Positions 4,350 to 33,000 of a DNA stretch of 64,000 nt are shown one piece after another. The notes beneath the pieces are model-generated. The model was not told where the DNA came from. It ran no database searches and saw only the letters and a program-made list of their open reading frames with translations. Made by a program: the position numbers and the translations under genes. Every line of letters starts with the position of its first letter. Position 1 is the stretch's first letter. Source of the stretch: a phage; assembly GCA_026188615.1 (NCBI GenBank), contig GCA_026188615.1_4525.1. One strand, given 5' to 3'.

Positions 4350-4537
4350 TAATCCACAATAGGAAGCAAAGTACGATAAACTTCAAAATTAGAGCCTTTT
4401 TCGTACTTATCGAAATTGTCCATAAAAATATGATAGGAATCGTTATTAGGAAAATCTAATATAATCTGAGAGCAAGAGGTGGAAACATCTCCACCATCCT
4501 TCTTAGCTACAATAACTGTTTCTAAATAAGCTTTCAT
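4349..4537 (-). CDS. hypothetical small protein
   Basis: ORF track 4349..4558 trimmed to Met (MKAYLET) whose ATG overlaps ligase stop (TAATG). Confidence 0.35.
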   Translation of the reverse strand: MKAYLETVIVAKKDGGDVSTSCSQIILDFPNNDSYHIFMDNFDKYEKGSNFEVYRTLLPIVD

Positions 4538-6030
4538 TATAAACCTGTCTGGGACCACGGTCCAAATACGTCTTCAAATGAATCCGCTTCTGTTTTATCA
4601 AAACGGAACCCTTTAATAATTGGAAGGAAAATACCTACAGTACCTTCACGGCCTTTAGAATGAACCCAACCATTGCATTCACAATCAGCAATACGTCCAA
4701 TCAATTTACCTTCACGAGCTTCGGTCATTAATCGTTCACGGTCCAAATCATGACGCTCATCTAAAGGAATAAGAACCTTTACACCATCAACTGTTTTATG
4801 AGTTGTATCTTTAAACCCTGAACCACAATCAGTTGTAATACGACGACAACGTGATACGAGTTCGACACCACCTAATTTGTTAGGGTCTTTAGAGTGTTCA
4901 TAGTATCCTACAACTTCTAAAGCGATATCAATAACTTCTTTAAATTTAATTAGGTTCTTAGAGCGTTTGTTTTCCCAGTATGAATCACGGTTTTTAAGGA
5001 TAATACCTTCAAGACCTTGGTCAACATATTTTTTATAAACCACTTTAGCTTCGTCAAGATTACGAACTAACTGATTTTCAATTGGCTCAATTCGCTTAAA
5101 GCCTTCAGCCATATTTTCAAGAGCAGCAAAACGAACATCGTATTTCTGACCTTTAATTTTACCGTCAGAATAGACTTCATCTAAAGGAACATAGTCCCAG
5201 GCTTGAAGAACCATACCTTCAGCTTCTTTAGGAGAAATAGTCCCTTGAAGAGATTTATTTGCTAAACCGTTTGAAGTGCTACGGTCCGCAACTTGTACTT
5301 CTTCGGATTCTTCATTATCACCAAATAAGAACGACAGGTCATTTCCTGAGCTCACAGCCTTTTTAATATCAAATGAATGGTAAACTAATTCACCGTCGAT
5401 TAAAACCCCATTAGGGTGTCTTTCACGAGCTTCTTTAGTCATTTCCATTAGTTCATCCGCTAATAGAGTAAGACCATGATATTCGTTGCCGGCACGAGAA
5501 AAGAATTGAACACCATCATCGCGAACTTCAGCGAAACAACGAGCACCATCTGCTTTTAATTGGGCAAATGCAGGCCATTTAATATTTTTAGTAATCAATT
5601 TCTCGTCATATGCAGATGCTAACATCTGTGGTTGCAATTGAATAAGTCCAGGCCACACCTTATTCGCGATAGACACTGAAGCACCTACTTCAAGGTCGCG
5701 CATCATTACACGACGAAGGACTTCTACATCATCAGGTTTACCATCAGCGATATAACCCATGAGCTCTTTAATTGCAGCATTACCAGTGAGTTTACGAGTG
5801 GCTAATGTGAACTCAATAAAATCCAACATGTCATCTAATTCAAGAAGACCATACGCTTGAGACCTTTCACCTGGTCCTGGCCATTTCTTAATATAATACT
5901 GGATACCACGTGCATATGTTAAACGATACACACGTTCAAGTAATTTGTTGTCCTTATTTTTCTTAAGGATTTCCTGTTTTGTTTTAGTAGAACCGATCGC
6001 AGCTATTTGGTTTAAAATATCTAAAATCAT
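4537..6030 (-). CDS. 30: ATP-dependent DNA ligase gp30
   Basis: 497 aa; near-colinear with recalled T4 ligase (MIL.ILN..A.IGSTK, KADGARCFAEVR adenylation lysine motif, ECECNGW near C-term). Confidence 0.95.
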   Translation of the reverse strand: MILDILNQIAAIGSTKTKQEILKKNKDNKLLERVYRLTYARGIQYYIKKWPGPGERSQAYGLLELDDMLDFIEFTLATRKLTGNAAIKELMGYIADGKPDDVEVLRRVMMRDLEVGASVSIANKVWPGLIQLQPQMLASAYDEKLITKNIKWPAFAQLKADGARCFAEVRDDGVQFFSRAGNEYHGLTLLADELMEMTKEARERHPNGVLIDGELVYHSFDIKKAVSSGNDLSFLFGDNEESEEVQVADRSTSNGLANKSLQGTISPKEAEGMVLQAWDYVPLDEVYSDGKIKGQKYDVRFAALENMAEGFKRIEPIENQLVRNLDEAKVVYKKYVDQGLEGIILKNRDSYWENKRSKNLIKFKEVIDIALEVVGYYEHSKDPNKLGGVELVSRCRRITTDCGSGFKDTTHKTVDGVKVLIPLDERHDLDRERLMTEAREGKLIGRIADCECNGWVHSKGREGTVGIFLPIIKGFRFDKTEADSFEDVFGPWSQTGL

Positions 6031-7594: not shown

Positions 7595-7796
7595 TTATAA
7601 TTTCAACATCAGCCCAATGTCCGTATCCAGGTATACGGTCTTCGATAGATAAATTTCTGTCATTTTTAGGCATTTTAATTGACGTAACGTATGGTTCTAA
7701 ACGGTTTTCCGCGTAATATGGAAAAACGTCGGTTACACGATAAGTAACTTCAATCATTTCCGTACCAAACAATTTCTGGATTAATTTATTCAACAT
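7578..7796 (-). CDS. hypothetical small protein (30.x cluster)
   Basis: 72-aa ORF in tightly packed minus-strand cluster. Confidence 0.4.
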   Translation of the reverse strand: MLNKLIQKLFGTEMIEVTYRVTDVFPYYAENRLEPYVTSIKMPKNDRNLSIEDRIPGYGHWADVEIISVKDV

Positions 7797-7983
7797 GTTT
7801 CAACCCTTTAATAGGAGATAACTCTTTACCCATACGTATGTCAGAAGTCCCATCAACCCATTGAACAGCATACGCTTCATTGATAATTCCAGCGGCAGTT
7901 TTAAATTCGTTGAGAACTTTAAAAATCATCCCAGGGATTCCAACACCTTTTAATTGGACTGTTTGTGCTATTAAAAATTTCAT
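7786..7983 (-). CDS. hypothetical small protein (30.x cluster)
   Basis: 65-aa ORF, overlaps neighbours by a few nt as typical for T4 early clusters. Confidence 0.4.
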   Translation of the reverse strand: MKFLIAQTVQLKGVGIPGMIFKVLNEFKTAAGIINEAYAVQWVDGTSDIRMGKELSPIKGLKHVE

Positions 7984-8037
7984 ATTTTTCCACTTACTAA
8001 AGAAATCATTATACTCTAATCCGTCCTTGGATGTACA

Positions 8038-8682
8038 CTACTTAATGAAATTAATTTCTACCGGATGAACAACAGGTTGAGCAGTGATATATTGAGTAAT
8101 TGCTTTCATGACTAGAGCTTCAGAACCAGGATTTTTCTCAACGAATTCACGTGCTAGGTTATGAGCTTCGAGTTCACTCAATAAACCGGAACGCTGGCAT
8201 CCACGGTCTTGAGTACCCTGTTCAGATAAAAGGACTACTACATATTTTTCATCGTCGTAGGGCTTAGCCAGTTGAGCAAATGTTCCTTTACTTCCAAAAG
8301 GAGAGTTATGTCGCCACATCACGCCGTGAGGAGTTTCAACCTTCGTATATTCGTGCGGTCCATTTTTCTTAGTTTCTTGATGTGGAACTTCATAGACCTT
8401 AGGGTTAGGACATTCAATAAAATGCTCATCTAAATCGGTCGAGAATATTAAAGTAAAACAATTACTGAATTTACCAACACCGGCCTGATAAATTTTACCT
8501 TCAGAAGTTCTAATTTCACAAACCGAGCCGGCATCAGTAACTTCTAAAACTTCAAAAGGCTCGATAAGGTCATATGAGAACATGTTTTTAAGGCGTGGAG
8601 TAATATCCCCATTTTTAAAATTCATTTTATAAAAAGTATTAACTTTAAACATAATTTCCTCAATGAGAGCCGAAGCTCCCAA
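8038..8682 (-). CDS. hypothetical protein, 214 aa (30.x cluster)
   Basis: Long ORF in coding-dense minus-strand cluster; no recognisable motif. Confidence 0.5.
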   Translation of the reverse strand: MGASALIEEIMFKVNTFYKMNFKNGDITPRLKNMFSYDLIEPFEVLEVTDAGSVCEIRTSEGKIYQAGVGKFSNCFTLIFSTDLDEHFIECPNPKVYEVPHQETKKNGPHEYTKVETPHGVMWRHNSPFGSKGTFAQLAKPYDDEKYVVVLLSEQGTQDRGCQRSGLLSELEAHNLAREFVEKNPGSEALVMKAITQYITAQPVVHPVEINFIK

Positions 8683-10833: not shown

Positions 10834-11142
10834 TTACATAAGAAGCAAACGTTCTACCGGAGTACCATCAACCGAAATTACTTTATCAAGGCGGAAAGAA
10901 CGCCACTGACCTAACTTGGTATCGAATGCTCGAACTGATTCACGAGGTTCAGAACGAACTTCTGTTGCCGGATTGTTATTTTCATATTTGACTTCAAGTT
11001 CATCGCGAGAAGCAAACATAGTGCGTACCTCACCGTTAGCCTTTTCAAATACAACACAATGAACGCCTACAGACAGAATAGTTTTAATACGTTCACGAAG
11101 AACCATAGTCTCTTGTTCAGTTAAAATCATATTATTCACCAC
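10834..11142 (-). CDS. hypothetical protein (31.1 position)
   Basis: 102-aa ORF between cd and gene 31. Confidence 0.5.
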   Translation of the reverse strand: MVNNMILTEQETMVLRERIKTILSVGVHCVVFEKANGEVRTMFASRDELEVKYENNNPATEVRSEPRESVRAFDTKLGQWRSFRLDKVISVDGTPVERLLLM

Positions 11143-11713
11143 AAAAGTTTCGGATTTGTTCCCAATTCAGAGAACGAAGATTATTACGAGAGTACTGAAT
11201 TACTTCAATACCGGCTTGTTTTAGAATGTCTGCCCAATTTTCAGGAGATCTGTCATATAATTCTGCGTATACAACCTTTTTAATACCTGACTGTGTAATA
11301 GCTTTAGTGCAATCAGGACACGGAGAAAGCGTCGTATATAACGTAGCACCTTCAATAGAATTACCTTTACGAGCTGCAAACAAAATTGCATTCAATTCAG
11401 CATGGATTTCGTTATTAGCAGACCATGCACTATGAGCGGCCCGATGTTCTTTAGCCAAAACAAAATTATCCACCCGTCCAAATGCTGTAGTGCCTTCTTT
11501 ATGCCCAGCAACGATGACCGGGCTTGGTTTATTCTTCAACCAACCGTTTTCGGATGCATGTTCGCAACAGTTTGTACCACCTGAAGGAGAGCCATTATAA
11601 CCTGTAGAAATAATGCGTCCATCTTTTTCAATGACGGCGCCAACTTTCCATGAACAACATTTTGATTCTTGAGAAATCAGATATGCAATCTGAAGGTATG
11701 TGCTAGCTTTCAT
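11132..11713 (-). CDS. cd: dCMP deaminase
   Basis: 193 aa = T4 Cd length; zinc-binding deaminase motifs HAELNAI and SPCPDCTKAI. Confidence 0.9.
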   Translation of the reverse strand: MKASTYLQIAYLISQESKCCSWKVGAVIEKDGRIISTGYNGSPSGGTNCCEHASENGWLKNKPSPVIVAGHKEGTTAFGRVDNFVLAKEHRAAHSAWSANNEIHAELNAILFAARKGNSIEGATLYTTLSPCPDCTKAITQSGIKKVVYAELYDRSPENWADILKQAGIEVIQYSRNNLRSLNWEQIRNFCGE

Positions 11714-12705
11714 TATTGAACCTTATTAATATAAGTTAACAGCTCTTTAGTTTGTTCCCAACTGATGCACGCATCGGTAACGGAAACGCCATAGGACATA
11801 TTATCAGAAATTTTTTGATTTCCTTCATGTAGGAACGATTCTATCATAATTCCTTTGACCAAATCATTAGCTGCTAAATTTTTACCAATACCAATTTGAT
11901 TGCTATAATGCCCATCAGCGTTTGCATGGCTACAGTCAACCATTACATAATGATTCAGACCTACTGCCCTTGCTTTGTTAGAAGCTTCTTGAATATCAGA
12001 AGAATGATAGTTCGGGCCGTTGGTCCCGCCACGCAATACGATATGCGTATTCTGATTACCTTCAGCTTCAACAATGCCTACAGTACCATCGACGTCCATA
12101 CCCATATACCGATGAGGCCAGGCGGCACTATACATCGCGTCTGTAGCTACTTTAATAGAACCATTGGTTGCGTTCTTGAAGCCTACGCACATCGGTAGAC
12201 CTGAAGCAATTTCACGATGTGTCTGACTTTCAGTCGTACGGGCGCCAATAGCAACCCATGAGAAAATACCAGAAAGATACTTAATCGTGAATGGGTCTAA
12301 TACTTCAGTTGCTAATGGAAGTCCCATACGTAGAAGTTTACGACACAATGTTCGTGCAACTATAAGACCGTGGTTCATATCAAAACTTCCGTCAAGATAT
12401 GGATCATTTACAAGACCTTTCCAACCTACGGTAGTTCGAGGCTTTTCAAAATAAACGCGCATCACTAACAGAACATTAGGAAGACGAGTTTGAAGTTCAG
12501 CCAGGCGTTTGCCGTATTCAACAGCAGCAATAGGGTCATGAATTGAACAAGGACCTACAACGATAAGTTTGCGTGGGTCTTCACCATTCATAATCGAATT
12601 AACTTGTTCGCGATGAGAAGCCACTTGTGATGCGTAAGCTTCCGACAAAGGAATAATCTCAGCCAGTTCTTTTGGAGAAATAAGTTTTCCGACGACAGGT
12701 AACAT
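11713..12705 (-). CDS. 3-deoxy-D-arabino-heptulosonate-7-phosphate (DAHP) synthase, class I (AroG/AroF/AroH-like)
   Basis: 330 aa; long colinear matches to recalled E. coli AroG: GPCSIHD, MRVYFEKPRTTVGWKGL, GARTTESQ.HRE.ASGL, VGFKN, LRGG, ESFLHEGNQ, TDACI. Confidence 0.85.
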   Translation of the reverse strand: MLPVVGKLISPKELAEIIPLSEAYASQVASHREQVNSIMNGEDPRKLIVVGPCSIHDPIAAVEYGKRLAELQTRLPNVLLVMRVYFEKPRTTVGWKGLVNDPYLDGSFDMNHGLIVARTLCRKLLRMGLPLATEVLDPFTIKYLSGIFSWVAIGARTTESQTHREIASGLPMCVGFKNATNGSIKVATDAMYSAAWPHRYMGMDVDGTVGIVEAEGNQNTHIVLRGGTNGPNYHSSDIQEASNKARAVGLNHYVMVDCSHANADGHYSNQIGIGKNLAANDLVKGIMIESFLHEGNQKISDNMSYGVSVTDACISWEQTKELLTYINKVQ

Positions 12706-12713
12706 AACAATCC

Positions 12714-12902
12714 TTAGGAGATATAAACAGATTCTGATTCAACAATACCTTTAACCGGATTAGACAGGCTAAGTTGGTAGTGCTCAGATTTATGACCATT
12801 CTCGATAGTAATGAGAGCTATCTCATTATAGTGTTCCATATACTCGAGTTGCTTCAACAAGACCATCACTGCATAATTTAAGATTAGTAATTTGGTCACC
12901 AT
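12714..12902 (-). CDS. hypothetical small protein (cd.x cluster); true start probably internal Met
   Basis: 62-aa ORF; overlaps next ORF. Confidence 0.3.
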   Translation of the reverse strand: MVTKLLILNYAVMVLLKQLEYMEHYNEIALITIENGHKSEHYQLSLSNPVKGIVESESVYIS

Positions 12903-13062
12903 CTTTAGGATTAACGATTATGAGAAAAGAACGTGGAGATTCTTGAATAACTCGTAATGTTGCATCTTGGAAACGTTCAGACACTTTATTGATGAGTGCT
13001 TGAGCAAATTCTTTTACTTTAATCTGAAATTCGTGTACTGTAATTGGGTTTTCACTTAGCAT
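12826..13062 (-). CDS. hypothetical small protein (cd.x cluster)
   Basis: 78-aa ORF preceded by early promoter-like element near 13080..13125. Confidence 0.4.
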   Translation of the reverse strand: MLSENPITVHEFQIKVKEFAQALINKVSERFQDATLRVIQESPRSFLIIVNPKDGDQITNLKLCSDGLVEATRVYGTL

Positions 13063-13122
13063 TTCTATTTCCTCATTTGTTGGTAGAGTTATAGTATCAC
13101 AACTCCACCATGTTGTAAACCA

Positions 13123-27746: not shown

Positions 27747-28400
27747 TTAATACTTACATGATTTGATTGTTTCTATGAACAATTTCTTAGCAGCATTTAC
27801 ATCGATTTGAAGTATTTTTCGATATGCCTTTAATTTGGTAGAATAATTTTGCCAGACTAAGTTATCGGTGAGTTCGTCGTGCTTATCTATAATATTCAAA
27901 AACGAGTCCAACAATAAGAAAGTCTCAAATGAAATTATATTGCTTTGTAGCAATTTAAATATGTAGCTCGACTGAACTTTATTATTATAATCAAATATCT
28001 CTTGAAGCGCACTAACTTCCACTTTCTTACTGAAATAGTAGATGTTACGTACATCTTCAGCAAACGTCTCCTTGGCTTGTTTGAGACGTCCAATATATTC
28101 CCTATAGAAAACTAATGCATCAGCGTCTGATATCTCACCAATCCATGCATCTTGGTTAGCAACTAAGTTGCTTATGAATATCAAGGTGAGTTCCTTTAAT
28201 TTATATTTCTCTGCTAGTTTTTCAAAGAAATATTTATCTCGGCGTTTTTGATACGCATTATCCGAAACACGCATGCACCAGTTATATTTGATTACGTCAT
28301 ACCGACCATTAAAATGTTGTTTGCACATCAAGTATAGTTTGTATACCGATTTTCCGTTAATATAACGTTCTCCATCAGGAGGCATGCGTATTTTAATCAT
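27747..28400 (-). CDS. 59: gp59 helicase loader
   Basis: 217 aa; near-colinear with recalled T4 gp59 (MIK.RMP..GERYI.GKSVYKLYLM.KQH.NG.YDVIKYNWCMRVSD). Confidence 0.95.
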   Translation of the reverse strand: MIKIRMPPDGERYINGKSVYKLYLMCKQHFNGRYDVIKYNWCMRVSDNAYQKRRDKYFFEKLAEKYKLKELTLIFISNLVANQDAWIGEISDADALVFYREYIGRLKQAKETFAEDVRNIYYFSKKVEVSALQEIFDYNNKVQSSYIFKLLQSNIISFETFLLLDSFLNIIDKHDELTDNLVWQNYSTKLKAYRKILQIDVNAAKKLFIETIKSCKY

Positions 28401-28735
28401 AATAAGAAATCTAACGTATTAGTTTTTTCACCACGAGCAACTGATGGGCGAAGCATGTTTTCGTCAATTGCTTCGCTTGTAATTTTTTCAACAATTCCTG
28501 TAGGAATAAATTTAGCAAATTGTGTTTCTGGAATAGAATTTTCTTCCAAGAAAGCAGTTGTTGCTTCTAAATAAGACATACCAAATTGTTCAACCATGGA
28601 TTCGATAATGAATCCGTTTTCTTGTCGGTCAAGCAATTTAGCGATATCATCTTTATCGTGTTTTACTGCTAATTCTTGTTCAGATAAACCGGCCTCATCA
28701 ACCGGTTTAATATCACTTAGTGAAAACTGTGTCAT
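28397..28735 (-). CDS. 33: gp33 late transcription co-activator
   Basis: 112 aa = T4 gp33; position between 59 and dsbA. Confidence 0.85.
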   Translation of the reverse strand: MTQFSLSDIKPVDEAGLSEQELAVKHDKDDIAKLLDRQENGFIIESMVEQFGMSYLEATTAFLEENSIPETQFAKFIPTGIVEKITSEAIDENMLRPSVARGEKTNTLDFLL

Positions 28736-28982
28736 AAAGCTCGACTACCTCTTCGTTTTCAGCTTCAAATTGATCACGAGCGTCTTTATGATAAAGAGCT
28801 AACAAACGATTAAACATTTTTCCATCGACACCAAGCTCTTCTTTAGCACGAGTACGAATGTCTTTAATCAGTTCATTATAACCAGAAATTTTAAGTTTGT
28901 TATCGGAAGCTTCCTTGACTAGTTTAGCCAGTTCTTCACCGTGCACATCTTGATTAAATTCAACTGCTTCTTTCTTAGCCAT
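28713..28982 (-). CDS. dsbA: DsbA double-stranded DNA-binding protein
   Basis: 89 aa from internal Met (T4 DsbA 89 aa); position between rnh and 33. Confidence 0.7.
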   Translation of the reverse strand: MAKKEAVEFNQDVHGEELAKLVKEASDNKLKISGYNELIKDIRTRAKEELGVDGKMFNRLLALYHKDARDQFEAENEEVVELYDTVFTK

Positions 28983-28989
28983 GTTTACC

Positions 28990-29907
28990 TCAGAATTCAT
29001 TAATTACACTTGTTAATTTAGAAAGACCAGATTTTACAAAGTATGAATAAATCTTGCCTTTAGGTTGTGGTTTATATGAATTATAATACTCTATAATGGT
29101 TGAAGCAATATTATCAGGGATATAATTAAAATCAATGAGAACCAAATTTTCTTGATACCGTTTATATTCTTCTGCACTTAATAATACTTCAGCTTGAGAA
29201 CGGTCATTGGCAATTGCTTCAATAATCGATGTTTTCATACTCGGAGTTCGTTCACCATCAACTCTGGTAAACCAGAAGTCGCCACGAACTCGAACAGATG
29301 CAACACCATCCTTACGGTCACCTTTAAGAATTTTAGTCATGCAATCAATTTCAGCAGAACCGTTCTTAATTTTAACCCATTTTTTCTGTGGTGGCGACCA
29401 CTGTTTAACGTTAGGATATTTGTGTAATTGTGTAAAGTCACCATCTGATGCAACAATACATACTTTATGTCCAGCTAATGACAAATATTTAGTTAATACA
29501 CCGATATGGTCATCCGCTTCATACTTGTCAATATCCATTACAACGTATGGCATGTATTTCTTAATCTCATCAACAACTTGATGGAGTGCAGTAAAATATC
29601 CTTCCCAATCCCACTTTGAAGCTTCACGATCGGTTTTACGATTTTTCTTGTAATAGTAAGCAAAGTCACGACGCCAATAACCCGAAGTAGCATTATCCAT
29701 ACACAATACAAATTTTGTATAGCCTTGCTTACGGAACATCACTACGTTTTTACGAATTGAATTCAAGATTACATGACGAACCATCGGAACGGTAATTTTA
29801 TCGCCGTCTTCAAAGTTGTTTAATGCGGCTGCCAATGCAATGTTACTAAAGTCGGCAAGTGCAATACCTTCTTTGTAATCTTCATCCAACATCATTTCTA
29901 AATCCAT
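28990..29907 (-). CDS. rnh: RNase H (5'-3' exonuclease/flap endonuclease)
   Basis: 305 aa; near-colinear with recalled T4 RNase H (MDLEMMLDEDYKEGI...). Confidence 0.95.
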   Translation of the reverse strand: MDLEMMLDEDYKEGIALADFSNIALAAALNNFEDGDKITVPMVRHVILNSIRKNVVMFRKQGYTKFVLCMDNATSGYWRRDFAYYYKKNRKTDREASKWDWEGYFTALHQVVDEIKKYMPYVVMDIDKYEADDHIGVLTKYLSLAGHKVCIVASDGDFTQLHKYPNVKQWSPPQKKWVKIKNGSAEIDCMTKILKGDRKDGVASVRVRGDFWFTRVDGERTPSMKTSIIEAIANDRSQAEVLLSAEEYKRYQENLVLIDFNYIPDNIASTIIEYYNSYKPQPKGKIYSYFVKSGLSKLTSVINEF

Positions 29908-29984
29908 ATGAACCTCTTGTTCAGTTAGTCAACTTGTCTATAGTAACACACTCATTTGAAAGCGTAAATAGTCTTTTACTCATT

Positions 29985-29992
29985 TATAAATA
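29985..29992 (+). promoter_or_regulatory. T4 late promoter TATAAATA upstream of gene 34
   Basis: Exact TATAAATA ~35 nt upstream of gene 34 ATG. Confidence 0.6.
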
Positions 29993-30026
29993 GTAAAATA
30001 GAACACATAATGATAAGAGGACTACC

Positions 30027-33000
30027 ATGGTTGACATCAAACGTAAGTTCAGGGCCGAAGATGGTCTTGATGCAGGCGGTGATAAGATAGTTAACGTTGC
30101 GCTTGCCGACCGCACAGTTGGCACCGATGGCGTGAACGTTGACTTTTTGGTGCAAGAAAACACCGTACAGAATTATGATGATACGCGCGCGTATACAAAA
30201 GATTTTATTGTTCTTTATAATAATCGTTTTTATCAAGCTTTAAGCGATATTCCAGCTCCGGCAGGCCCTTTCTCTTTGGGTAAATGGAAGGCAACTCGTA
30301 CAGATGCAGATTGGATTACAGTTCAAGGCGGAGATTTCCAATTATCAGTAGGTAACTCTATTGCGGTTGATACTTCAGCTGGCACTGATATTAATTTCAC
30401 TTTGCCTCAAAATCCTTTAGATGGCGATACAGTTATTTTGTCTGATATTGGCGGTAGAGTAGGCTATGTAAAAGTTCAAATTACTGCAGCGGCTCAAAGT
30501 ATTGTAAACTTTAGAGGACAACAGGTTCGTTCAGTTTTAATGACGCACCCAAAATCTAAAATGGTCTTCATTTTTAGCAACCGCCTATGGCAAATGTATA
30601 TTTCTGATTATGAACGTAATGCAGTCACAGTAACTCCTGCTAAGCCGTATCAGGCGCAACCTAACGATTTTATCATTCGTCGTTTTACATCAGCCGCTCC
30701 TATTAATATTACATTGCCTCGCAATGCTAATAATGGCGATATTATTAATTTAGTTGATTTAGACAAATTAAACCCGTTATATCACACAATTGTCAAAACT
30801 TACGATGATACAACTTCTATACGAGAAGCTGGTGTTCATGTAGCAGAAGGACGTAATACTGCGGAAGCGTTCTTTGTTTATGATTCTGCTAATAGCTTAT
30901 GGCGTGTTTGGGAAGGTGACCAGAAATCTCGTTTACGTATAGTTCGTAATGATACTGATTTACGCCCTAATGAAGAAGTTCTTGTTTTTGGAACTGATAA
31001 TAATACAATCTCGACGGTAAATCTTACTTTGCCTACAGATATTTTGTCTGGCGATACTGTTAAAATATCGTTGAATTATATGCGTAAAGGGCAAACTGTA
31101 AAAATTAAAGCTGCTGAAGGCGATACAATTGCTAGCAGTATTTCTTTATTACAGTTCCCAAAACGTTCGGAGTATCCACCTGATGCACAATGGGTTTCTG
31201 TTAGTGAGCTGGAATTTAATGGTGATACTTCGTATGTACCTGTACTTGAGTTAGCTTATATAGAAGATTATTCATCTGAAACAAAATATTGGGTAGTTCA
31301 ACAAAACACCGTAACCGTCGAACGAGTCGATGCATCGAGCAATAACACTCGAGCTCGTTTAGGTGTTATTGCTCTTGCTTCTCAAGCGCAAGCAAATGTT
31401 GATTTAGAAAATGCTCCTGGTAAAGAACTGGCTATTACTCCGGAAACATTAGCAAATCGTACAGCAACTGAAACTCGTCGTGGTATTGCTCGTATTGCAA
31501 CAACTGCACAAGTTAACCAGAATACCGATTTTGCATTCCAGGATGATTTGATTATTTCTCCTAAGAAATTGAATGAACGTACAGCAACTGAAACCCGTAG
31601 AGGTGTTGCTGAAGTTGCAACTCAGACTGAAACTAATGCTGGCACAGATGATACCACTATTATTACTCCTAAGAAATTGGATGCCCGTCAAGGTTCTGAA
31701 GTTTTATCTGGTATTGTAAAATACACATCTACGACTGGTACTACAGCTGCTACTATTCGTGGTAATGCTGGGACTAACGTTTATAACAAAGCCGTAGATA
31801 ATTTAACTATTTCTCCAAAGGCTCTTGACCAGTATAAAGCTACCCCTACTCAACAGGGCTCAGTAATTCTTGCTATTGAAAGCGAAGTTATCGCTGGCGA
31901 ATCACAAGCTGGTTGGGCTAATGCTGTAGTGACCCCTGAAACTCTGCATAAGAAAACTTCTACTGATGGACGTATTGGTTTAATTGAAATTGCTACGCAA
32001 GCAGAAACTAACACTGGAACTGATTATACTAGAGCAGTAACGCCTAAGACGTTAAATGATAGGAAAGCTACGGAAGGATTATCTGGCATAGCCGAACTTG
32101 CTACGCAAGTTGAATTTGATACTGGAACTGATGATACTCGTATCTCGACTCCACTGAAAATTAAAACTCATTTTGATTCTTCTGACCGTACCAGTGTTAA
32201 TTCTGATTCCGGACTTATTGAAGAAGGAACCTTGTGGAACCATTATACTCTTGATATTTCTAAAGCAAATGAAACACAACGCGGTACACTTCGCGTAGCG
32301 ACCCAGGCAGAATCTAATGCAGGAACTTTAGATGATGTTCTTATTACTCCTAAAAAGCTTTTAGGGACTAAGTCCACTGAAACATCTGAAGGTGTAATTA
32401 AGGTTGCTACTCAGGCTGAAACTGTAACAGGAACTTCTGCTAATACTGCTGTATCACCTAAGAATTTAAAATGGATTGTTCAATCAGAACCATCATGGAC
32501 TGCTACTACGGCAATTCGTGGATTCGTTAAAACTTCATCTGGTTCTATTACATTTGTCGGTGACGATACTCAAGGTAATACCCAGGATTTGAATCTTTAT
32601 GAGAAAAATAGTTATGCTATTTCTCCATATGAATTAAACCGTGTACTTGCTAACTACTTACCGTTGAAAGCTAAAGCAGCTGATAGTAATTTGTTAGATG
32701 GTCTAGATTCTCTTCAGTTCATCCGTAGAGACATCGACCAGACGGTTAATGGTTCTTTAAGTCTTACTAAACAGACCAACCTGAGTGCTCCTTTAGTATC
32801 TACAAGCACTGCTTCTTTTGGTTCCGAAGCATCTGTTACTCGTAGATTAACTCTTAATGACTCTAGCGGTTCCGAAATAATTTTCACTAAAGGAACCCAA
32901 TCTCTTAGTAATAAAGAGAATTTCGTTGTTAGAGCATGGGGTAATAGCGCTACAGATGGTGCCCGTGATACAGTATTTGAAGCGGGTGACGAAACCGGAT

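Follow-up and report, generated by a model that had tools for sequence, protein, structure and literature searches.

Some auxiliary metabolic genes (AMGs) of phages act at flux-controlling host steps, as in cyanophages, where talC, CP12 and zwf redirect the pentose phosphate pathway. The DAHP synthase gene described here is similar in that one phage enzyme would act at a host control point while the host supplies the other steps, but it concerns another pathway and other hosts, and its role is read from sequence. The closest described enzymes are Escherichia coli AroF (the Tyr-sensitive enzyme), AroG and AroH, which belong to the same type Iα subfamily (51%, 47% and 44% full-length identity to the phage protein, respectively) and are controlled by TyrR/TrpR, whereas the phage gene is probably under an early phage promoter. 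Residues Q151/Q152 and S180/S181 touch the inhibitor, and the AroG substitutions P150L, S180F and F209A/S confer feedback resistance (PMC9529685), as does removal of Ile11 from AroF (PMC10729320). Shikimate pathway AMGs have been reported in viromes (PMC12180181), and two phage orthologues are mentioned in passing, the KLB31 copy as an AMG (PMC11845039) and the phiC120 copy in a list (PMC8022965). Full-text literature, with few subscription journals covered, yielded no enzyme assay or infection phenotype for any phage orthologue, and no description of the remodelled feedback site of the phage versions was found in the literature searched.

The analysed window, a 64,000-nt stretch of DNA, comes from a T4-like phage of the RB69 group. 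Its open reading frame listing contains a single long frame of 330 aa with an ATG start at the position of interest (Table 1), which an earlier note made from the sequence alone had called an AroG-like class I DAHP synthase. Profile searches, including the Pfam comparison which that note had proposed, bear this out: the translation matches PF00793 (DAHP_synth_1; E=5.2e-75, 252 bits against a cutoff of 25.5, profile positions 8–269 of 270), the NCBIfam aroFGH model TIGR00034 (427.7 bits, cutoff 173.2) and PRK12755 (455 bits, cutoff 343), and the best solved relative in a PDB sequence search is E. coli AroF (6agm, E=5e-105, residues 8–327). PHROG 5045, categorized as "moron, auxiliary metabolic gene and host takeover", covers the protein in full (E=3.2e-182, residues 1–330, profile positions 8–337 of 341). 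An AF2 model (pLDDT 93.2, pTM 0.92) predicts a (β/α)8 barrel with the Iα-specific β6a/β6b hairpin (strands 198–203 and 209–214), and a Foldseek search with this model returned DAH7PS structures from Neisseria meningitidis and E. coli (4hso, 1kfl and 1gg1) at a TM score of 0.96 and an rmsd of 1.4–1.5 Å. By these matches the open reading frame is a type Iα (class I) DAHP synthase. It resembles AroF in having glycine at the position of AroG S211 and proline at that of M147, and differs from AroF, AroG and AroH in an N-terminus shorter by 8–9 residues and in three short deletions within the last third of the protein.

Alignment with E. coli AroG places the metal ligands C61, H268, E302 and D326 at C53, H260, E289 and D311 of the phage protein, so that all four are kept. 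The motifs quoted in the earlier note are all present in the translation (GPCSIHD 51–57, THIVLRGG 220–227, ESFLHEGNQ 289–297 and TDACI 310–314), and its Cys, Glu and Asp ligands agree with the alignment, but its His does not: AroG H268 aligns to H260, and the ligand His therefore sits in DCSHANA rather than in THIVLRGG, which instead contributes R225, the counterpart of the PEP-binding Arg234. The other PEP site residues of AroG (R92, K97, G163-A164-R165 and K186) correspond to R83, K88, G154-A155-R156 and K177, and the E4P motif K97-P-R-T100 to K88-P89-R90-T91. The metal, PEP and E4P residues are the same in AroF (6agm/6agl), AroG (1kfl, 1gg1) and AroH, and are invariant among 25/25 phage-clade and 62/62 bacterial proteins, with the exception of T100, which is T or S in bacteria. 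We infer that the phage enzyme is catalytically competent and metal-dependent, converting PEP and erythrose-4-phosphate (E4P) to DAHP and Pi.

The PF00793 fold is common to DAHP synthase and KDO8P synthase, and E. coli DAHP synthase weakly accepts 5-carbon phosphates. The phage enzyme might thus condense PEP with another aldose phosphate (arabinose-5-phosphate, in the manner of KDO8P synthase, or ribose-5-phosphate) to give an unusual sugar acid, the more so as this phage group makes extra arabinose-5-phosphate (PMC13326640). We regard such a change of substrate as very improbable: K-P-R-T and all other active-site residues match those of AroF/G/H in 25/25 phage proteins, and the aroFGH equivalog score lies far over its cutoff. 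Identity as KDO8P synthase itself (KdsA) was rejected, the KPRT motif being kept and no KdsA/KDO8P synthase model being found among the NCBIfam matches at E<=0.01.

The phage and bacterial enzymes differ systematically elsewhere. An unbiased column scan of 25 phage against 62 bacterial proteins, the latter being the best-scoring matches to the phage protein used as query and thus biased to AroF-like sequences, identified 7 of 330 columns that are conserved within both groups yet different between them. The replacements (AroG numbering) are P150I, Q151K, D155G, L156I, S180P, F209Y and T223A; those in the pocket correspond to I141, K142, G146, P171, Y200 and A214 of the phage protein. All seven lie in or beside the inhibitor pocket (L156 and T223 being placed there by adjacency to D155 and V221), and none of them lies in the active site. 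Five of the seven are among 12 positions listed a priori as belonging to the inhibitor site or linked to feedback resistance (hypergeometric P=5e-7). The N-terminal segment is also altered. The residue equivalent to AroG P19 is preceded by 10 residues in this phage protein and by 8–12 in the phage clade, compared with at least 16 in 62/62 bacterial proteins, in line with the earlier remark that the N-terminus is shorter than that of AroG. AroG residues 2–9 are missing from the phage clade, among them D6 and D7, which we take to line the inhibitor site in the Phe-bound AroG structure.

The aromatic amino acid feedback site, comprising the N-terminal segment together with P150, Q151, S180, F209 and their neighbours, is thus not retained in the phage protein, which is compatible with its family membership because this is a regulatory rather than a catalytic feature. 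Given the loss of about 8 N-terminal residues and the fixed inhibitor-site replacements, the phage enzyme is most likely insensitive to feedback by Phe, Tyr and Trp; the earlier suggestion that it is possibly unregulated thereby gains support from the loss of AroG residues 2–9 and the changes at P150, Q151, D155, S180 and F209. Engineered feedback-resistant enzymes (AroG P150L, S180F, D146N and F209A, and AroF lacking Ile11) overlap with the phage protein, which is changed at 150, 180, 209 and the N-terminus, and the expected outcome, unrestrained carbon entry to the shikimate pathway, is shared. In contrast to the engineered mutants, the phage changes are natural, multiple and fixed clade-wide, and introduce I, P and Y rather than L, F and A.

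Conservation of the replaced pocket bears on what became of it. At 11 of the 12 a-priori positions, conservation among the phage proteins is >=96%, where the background is 41% (P=4e-4), and the seven clade-specific residues are fixed though the phage proteins are otherwise 57–77% identical. Such near-invariance fits continued constraint, structural or from another ligand, better than simple abandonment. The pocket could have been converted to bind a different effector that ties activity to the state of infection: the hairpin that forms it is kept in the AF2 model, and an anion, for instance a nucleotide or a sugar phosphate, would be a fitting ligand for the conserved Lys that stands in for Gln151. 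We consider this re-tuned regulation unlikely, as the phage enzyme lacks the N-terminal stretch by which AroG and AroF close the pocket. Conservation may also be purely structural, because the AroG inhibitor pocket sits at the tight-dimer interface.

The gene adjoins cd, lies transcriptionally upstream of it, and is surrounded by an early nucleotide-metabolism block (cd, pseT, denA, nrdAB, td and frd). Its TAA stop codon (11715–11713) overlaps the cd ATG (11713–11711), an arrangement consistent with translational coupling of DAHP synthase and dCMP deaminase. In line with the earlier note, the counterpart interval of the T4 record carries only small genes, cd.1–cd.5 (66–112 aa); cd.1 occupies the DAHP synthase slot. 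A promoter-like site in the cd.3–cd.2 gap aligns, in a comparison with T4 and RB69, with the T4 interval annotated as early promoter Pe133295, and is the probable promoter for cd.2, DAHP synthase and cd. The scan gave 14 promoter-like sites against a shuffled expectation of 15.2, and only this T4-aligned site was kept. Terminator-like sites were likewise not in excess (2 against 3.3 expected). Visual inspection of the 109-bp gap that precedes the DAHP synthase gene revealed neither a MotA box nor a late-promoter motif, and the window gave no matches when scanned for tRNAs and against Rfam.

Table 1. Features at and around the DAHP synthase gene (window positions)
Feature	Position	Strand	Basis
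cd, dCMP deaminase, 193 aa	11132..11713	-	PF00383, E=1.7e-26; directly downstream of DAHP synthase, same direction
ATAATGA direct repeat, downstream copy	11710..11716	-	Comparison with RB69
TAATG stop/start overlap, DAHP synthase/cd	11711..11715	-	Read from sequence
DAHP synthase CDS, type Iα, AroF-like	11713..12705	-	330 aa; profile, structure-model and PHROG matches
Shine-Dalgarno-like AAGGA	12711..12715	-	5 nt ahead of the ATG at 12705
Remnant (~109 bp), 3' end of a second, divergent cd.2-like gene	12714..12822	-	DUF7320 positions 46–76, E=5e-5
ATAATGA direct repeat, upstream copy	12823..12829	-	Comparison with RB69
cd.2, 78 aa, DUF7320, resident RB69-type copy	12826..13062	-	Profile match; comparison with RB69
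Promoter-like site, sigma-70/T4-early type	13091..13119	-	TTTACA, 17 nt, TACTAT, extended -10 TG

Taken with the altered feedback site, the locus is best explained by an early-expressed, feedback-insensitive DAHP synthase that sustains carbon entry into the shikimate pathway during infection, a reading to which we assign a probability of roughly 60%. Early transcription would start at the conserved promoter preceding cd.2, and the DAHP synthase would be translated along with dCMP deaminase. With host transcription off, aromatics plentiful and host AroF/G/H inhibited, the phage enzyme would still feed the shikimate/chorismate pathway, the later steps being carried out by host enzymes, and the phage would gain aromatic amino acids for building virion protein as well as folate and other cofactors derived from chorismate. 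Both early expression and the physiological benefit are points that we infer. In the regions examined the phage encodes only the first of the seven shikimate steps, and a benefit within a lytic cycle of ~25 min therefore needs spare host downstream capacity. A counterpoint is that the gene is dispensable, being absent from T4, RB69 and ~10 other Mosigvirus records. If insensitive to feedback, the enzyme would be a naturally occurring equivalent of the hand-built mutants of metabolic engineering, usable as it stands for producing aromatic compounds, as well as a clear, genetically tractable coliphage AMG acting on amino acid or cofactor supply.

The position of the gene inside the nucleotide-metabolism block, overlapping cd, would also suit a benefit that lies in the removal of E4P instead of in aromatic products, pulling the reversible transketolase and transaldolase reactions towards pentose phosphates for nucleotides and UDP-arabinose. 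The latter would be reached from Ru5P through arabinose-5-phosphate and serve to arabinosylate 5-hydroxycytosine DNA; RB69-group phages do send Ru5P into DNA arabinosylation (PMC13326640), in a paper that leaves the DAHP synthase gene unmentioned. We compared the distribution of the gene with that of RB69 gp55, the arabinose-5-phosphate isomerase, as a marker of arabinosylation. The isomerase occurs in most groups that bear DAHP synthase (Mosigvirus, EcS1, KLB31, Entb_45, Serratia CBH8, SdyM_006 and phiP4-3), an overlap that common ancestry of the genera would equally explain, but it is found without DAHP synthase in RB69, 57 Acinetobacter phages and one Tegunavirus record. Conversely, DAHP synthase is present in 25 Klebsiella phage records, whereas Klebsiella is not among the ten commonest organism names for the isomerase (last count 3), which points to Klebsiella Marfavirus phages with DAHP synthase but no isomerase. 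The RB69 gp45–55/Afh cluster lies beside gene 43 (~24–31 kb of the genome), ~100 kb from the cd locus. With its gene outside the modification cluster and co-occurrence broken, DAHP synthase does not qualify as a member of the arabinosyl-5-hydroxycytosine pathway; a strict link was rejected, since the overlap, large as it is, breaks in both directions, and the E4P sink is left as a rival of low probability. Doubtful, too, is a re-purposed enzyme uniting both ideas, in which a non-aromatic ligand specific to infection would occupy the strictly conserved, remodelled pocket (I141, K142, G146, P171, Y200 and A214) and the drain on E4P would feed nucleotide and UDP-arabinose synthesis.

The DAHP synthase gene has already been annotated in >200 phage genomes. 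Identical proteins, labelled DAHP synthase, aroF or AroG, occur in ~140 Mosigvirus genomes in GenBank and RefSeq, and annotated orthologues include those of Edwardsiella PEi20 (YP_009190391), Klebsiella EI and KLB31, Serratia X20, Proteus PM2 and Escherichia phiC120 (ORF64). The gene call itself is thus known, being correctly named in GenBank/RefSeq and filed among the AMGs in PHROGs; the novelty implied by the earlier note was overstated, and the window adds a further copy to PHROG 5045 that shows no substantive difference from the other phage orthologues. Identity to the window protein is 98–100% within Mosigvirus and 58–77% for the other annotated orthologues. Orthologues occupy the pseT-cd slot of Kanagawa-, Marfa-, Winkler- and Bragavirus, and the order pseT-DAHP synthase-cd is shared by PEi20, EI, X20, PM2 and one metagenomic T4-like contig; the gene abuts cd here and in PEi20, while 1–2 small genes intervene in EI, X20 and PM2. 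An NJ tree (without bootstrap) gathers the phage proteins, with their short N-terminus, into one clade, and of the long homologues examined the nearest (P0024) comes from a bacterium. This clade has apparently long been carried in the pseT-cd early block of T4-like phages of Enterobacterales, whose enzymes differ systematically from the bacterial ones only at the feedback-inhibition site.

Local features of the locus raise the alternative of a recent host capture or a functionless passenger (moron) hitch-hiking in a recombination hot spot. Homing-endonuclease genes flank the gene in Klebsiella EI and lie nearby in Proteus PM2, and the gene is accessory in Mosigvirus, where comparison with RB69 shows a clean 1,106-bp (1.1-kb) indel bounded by the 7-bp direct repeat ATAATGA. 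The earlier description of the gene as inserted therefore holds locally, but the gene is old, being syntenic in at least five T4-like genera. Against recent capture, bacterial identity reaches only 51–55% at best, host AroF included, and Enterobacterales are no more favoured among the best bacterial matches than Planctomycetota or Kiritimatiellota; the phage proteins group in a single clade, and GC content has shifted towards the phage value (gene 0.415, window 0.378, E. coli aroF 0.518). Against a pseudogene or passenger, 213/213 matching phage records are intact, with >=80% of the query covered in one piece, and divergence tracks that of neighbouring core genes (dN 0.19–0.41 for DAHP synthase, similar to 0.11–0.32 for cd and 0.28–0.68 for pseT). 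Between genera dN/dS is 0.13–0.25 with dS saturated, showing purifying selection at the level of codon comparison. Capture or passenger status is largely refuted by the present data, and we consider it highly unlikely.

As gene-plus and gene-minus natural isolates exist within one genus, testing should be straightforward. The segment missing from RB69 also contains the remnant of a second cd.2-like gene, located between the resident cd.2 and DAHP synthase and matched by phrog_15876 and phrog_1504. Its C-terminus resembles the PEi20/EI rather than the RB69/T4 type, and the remnant, as read from these matches, is a mark of past recombination.

Database searches bear out the earlier note's reading of the open reading frame as a class I DAHP synthase: the product matches Pfam DAHP_synth_1 (E = 5.2e-75), the NCBIfam aroFGH equivalog TIGR00034 (427.7 bits, cutoff 173.2) and PRK12755 (455 bits, cutoff 343), and scores under the cutoffs of the AroG-specific and AroH-specific NCBIfam models; no KDO8P-synthase model is among its NCBIfam matches. 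Among solved structures the closest match is E. coli AroF (6agm, E = 5e-105); N. meningitidis and E. coli AroG structures come next. An AlphaFold2 model (84 homologues; mean pLDDT 93.2, pTM 0.92) keeps the β6a/β6b hairpin typical of subtype Iα and superimposes on solved DAH7PS structures with a TM of 0.96 and an rmsd of 1.4–1.5 Å. Alignment with AroG, AroF and AroH of E. coli MG1655 retains all four metal ligands (AroG C61, H268, E302 and D326) as C53, H260, E289 and D311; the Cys, Glu and Asp had been named correctly beforehand, but the His ligand is H260 in DCSHANA, not that in THIVLRGG. The PEP site (AroG R92, K97, G163–R165, K186 and R234) and the E4P motif K-P-R-T are complete, and the metal, PEP and E4P residues are invariant in 25/25 short-N-terminus phage proteins (the phage clade) and 62/62 bacterial homologues. 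Since the active-site residues are exactly those of AroF/G/H, a changed specificity, with another aldose as substrate, is unlikely. The loop after K-P-R is flexible in substrate-free DAHP synthase crystals; T91-T92-V93, directly after K-P-R of the E4P-binding motif, is the sole low-confidence stretch of the model (pLDDT <50).

The gene call is not new. By tblastn, 213 of 50,697 phage records carry the protein, always as an unbroken match to 80% or more of the query, with at least 95% identity in 140. It is named in these records 'phospho-2-dehydro-3-deoxyheptonate aldolase', 'aroF', 'AroG', 'DAHP synthetase' or 'hypothetical', and is catalogued as PHROGs family phrog_5045 (E = 3e-182; category 'moron, auxiliary metabolic gene and host takeover'). 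Two papers refer to the gene briefly, one as an amino-acid AMG in Klebsiella phage KLB31 (PMC11845039) and one as a domain match in phiC120 (PMC8022965); a search of full-text literature directed at DAHP synthases of phages or viruses, most subscription journals being outside its scope, turned up no biochemical or genetic work on any of the phage enzymes. What remains of interest is a cheaply testable idea, that T4-like phages harbor a natural clade of feedback-resistant or re-regulated DAHP synthases.

A function-blind scan for columns at least 90% conserved within both groups and occupied by different residues between them returned 7 of 330 columns (AroG P150→I, Q151→K, D155→G, L156→I, S180→P, F209→Y and T223→A). 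Five are among 12 a priori feedback-resistance or inhibitor-contact positions taken from PMC9529685 (hypergeometric P = 5e-7), and the other two lie next to list positions 155 and 221. The changes that set the phage clade apart are thus concentrated at the inhibitor pocket, and the active site is unchanged. AroG P150L, S180F and F209A/S are feedback-resistant, Q151/Q152 and S180/S181 contact the inhibitor, and D155/D156 form a stabilizing salt bridge (PMC9529685). The N terminus is indeed shorter than that of AroG, as previously noted: 8–12 residues precede the equivalent of AroG P19 in the phage clade versus at least 16 in 62/62 bacterial proteins, and AroG residues 2–9, including D6 and D7 (AroF N8), are absent from the phage clade. 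AroF with Ile11 removed is a standard feedback-resistant allele (PMC10729320). The simplest reading is that the phage clade would no longer be inhibited by Phe, Tyr or Trp. The new pocket residues are fixed, with 11 of the 12 a priori positions at least 96% conserved in the phage clade, where the background is 41% (P = 4e-4); judged from sequence, the pocket is under continuing constraint, structural or for another ligand, and a rival explanation is that it has been re-tuned to a new effector. Single ancestral or alternative pocket residues persist in the most divergent members of the clade (Pro at AroG-150 in P0022; Arg at 151 and Asn at 155 in P0020), which makes these proteins possible intermediates for ordering the pocket changes. 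We found no description of this inhibitor-site remodeling elsewhere.

Features of the DAHP synthase locus in the window
Feature	Position	Strand	Details
DAHP synthase ORF	11713..12705	-	Single, 330 aa, ATG start; ORF listing
Shine-Dalgarno AAGGA		-	5 nt ahead of DAHP synthase ATG; read from sequence
TAATG overlap		-	DAHP synthase TAA shares its final base with ATG of following gene cd; read from sequence
cd, dCMP deaminase	11132-11713		Downstream of DAHP synthase; PF00383, E=1.7e-26
cd.2 (DUF7320), cd.3 (DUF7355), two small ORFs, polynucleotide kinase pseT			Upstream of DAHP synthase
Promoter-like TTTACA-17-TACTAT	13119-13091	-	Extended -10 TG; cd.3-cd.2 gap; scan
Direct repeat ATAATGA (7 bp)	12823-12829 and 11710-11716		Both ends of segment absent from RB69
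cd.2-like 3'-end remnant	12714-12822	-	Between intact cd.2 and DAHP synthase; DUF7320 positions 46-76

The wider setting is a T4-type early block (30 - rIII - 31 - cd - pseT - alc - rnlA - denA - nrdB - nrdA - td - frd - 32); window 1–64000 contains no tRNA genes and no Rfam families at gathering score. Promoter-like matches across the region are not commoner than in shuffled sequence, so weight is placed only on the conserved site in the cd.3-cd.2 gap, which aligns with the matching T4 and RB69 intervals; according to the T4 record, this gap holds early promoter Pe133295. We infer that cd.2, DAHP synthase and cd are transcribed together early, with translation coupled to cd. An early, feedback-insensitive DAHP synthase is the best explanation, to which we assign a probability of about 0.6; the original observation is confirmed, and its interpretation as a possibly unregulated enzyme essentially right. 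Once the host is shut off, such an enzyme would still feed PEP and E4P into the shikimate pathway, whatever the aromatic amino-acid levels, and host enzymes would perform the remaining steps that yield aromatic amino acids and cofactors derived from chorismate. As a rival, the enzyme might serve as an E4P sink, driving pentose-phosphate reactions towards the supply of nucleotides and UDP-arabinose: RB69-group phages arabinosylate 5-hydroxycytosine from Ru5P (PMC13326640), and an arabinose-5-P isomerase marker overlaps strongly with DAHP synthase-bearing genera. However, the overlap is not strict: RB69, 57 Acinetobacter phages and one Tegunavirus record have the isomerase without DAHP synthase, and the isomerase is, judged by the matches listed, missing from most of the 25 DAHP synthase-bearing Klebsiella records.

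The same pseT-cd slot is occupied in Kanagawavirus PEi20 (77% identity to the window protein), Winklervirus X20 (67%), Marfavirus Klebsiella phage EI (66%), Bragavirus PM2 (58%) and an uncultured T4-like contig (57%). In a neighbor-joining tree all short proteins (319–343 aa) form one clade, separate from bacterial AroF-like proteins (341–388 aa); its most basal members come from T4-like contigs; of the long proteins examined, the nearest is encoded on a chromosome. The best bacterial identity is at most 55%, host Enterobacterales being no nearer than Planctomycetota. Between genera, dN/dS is 0.13–0.25 and dN 0.19–0.41, a range like that of cd and pseT; GC is 0.415; the window as a whole has 0.378 and E. 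coli aroF/aroG 0.52. The clade, identities, dN/dS and GC therefore indicate an old acquisition, followed by vertical inheritance with the phage backbone under purifying selection, the gene being lost or exchanged from time to time. A functionless passenger is rejected on the dN/dS values and on the intactness of the gene in all 213 matching records.

T4 has no DAHP synthase at the pseT-cd position; a 112-aa cd.1 stands there instead, in line with the earlier note. In RB69, the type Mosigvirus, cd.2 directly abuts cd, and the window has a clean additional segment (11717–12822, 1,106 bp) between flanks 97% identical. The gene is in this sense 'inserted' next to the dCMP deaminase, but recent insertion from the host is ruled out by the tree, identities, dN/dS and GC. 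A junction probe found the uninterrupted cd.2-cd junction in about 11 Mosigvirus records, among them RB69 (8249–8255), JK36, JK42, moha, ECO111 5-P and five 'vB_Eco_mar005P1', and the gene in about 140; the two sets are natural near-isogenic comparators. Unlike those five, 'Mosigvirus mar005p1' record OZ035759 carries the gene. The segment consists of DAHP synthase and a ~109-bp leftover of the 3' end of a second cd.2-like gene, which looks like a recombination scar, not a gene. Because its encoded tail (..KGIVESESVYIS) is closer to the PEi20/EI type than to the RB69/T4 type, the Mosigvirus arrangement appears scarred by recombination with another T4-like lineage. Records of relatives list the remnant as a small hypothetical gene (gp197 in JK45), and PHROGs gives it a separate 41-aa family (15876). 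The direct repeat is made up of TAATG, a stop/start overlap in the T4 style, and the bases beside it, and repeated junctions of this kind may provide the microhomology by which gene cassettes are gained or lost. Homing-endonuclease genes lie on both sides of DAHP synthase in EI (1981–2575 and 4510–5048; annotated SegB-like and MobE-like, apparently split), and one lies upstream, between pseT and DAHP synthase, in PM2 (2106–2822); such endonucleases seem to have made the pseT-cd interval a hot spot of exchange.

The 4.4 kb surrounding DAHP synthase is 98–99.6% identical to many Mosigvirus-type (RB69-group) coliphages. The record taxonomy of Shigella phage JK45 (NC_054940) is Tequatrovirus, probably a misclassification; its region is 98.8% identical to the window's Mosigvirus-type DNA over 4.4 kb. 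RB69-type arabinose-5-P isomerase is also matched in its GenBank record MK962757, and its nrdB (27874–30143) is interrupted by an intron-like endonuclease gene. In RB69, cd is annotated as 510 bp (169 aa; 7743–8252), versus 582 bp (193 aa) in the window and T4, which may be a sequencing or annotation error of the old RB69 record; split ORFs 46/47 and 52/53 reported in that record (PMC13326640) offer a parallel.
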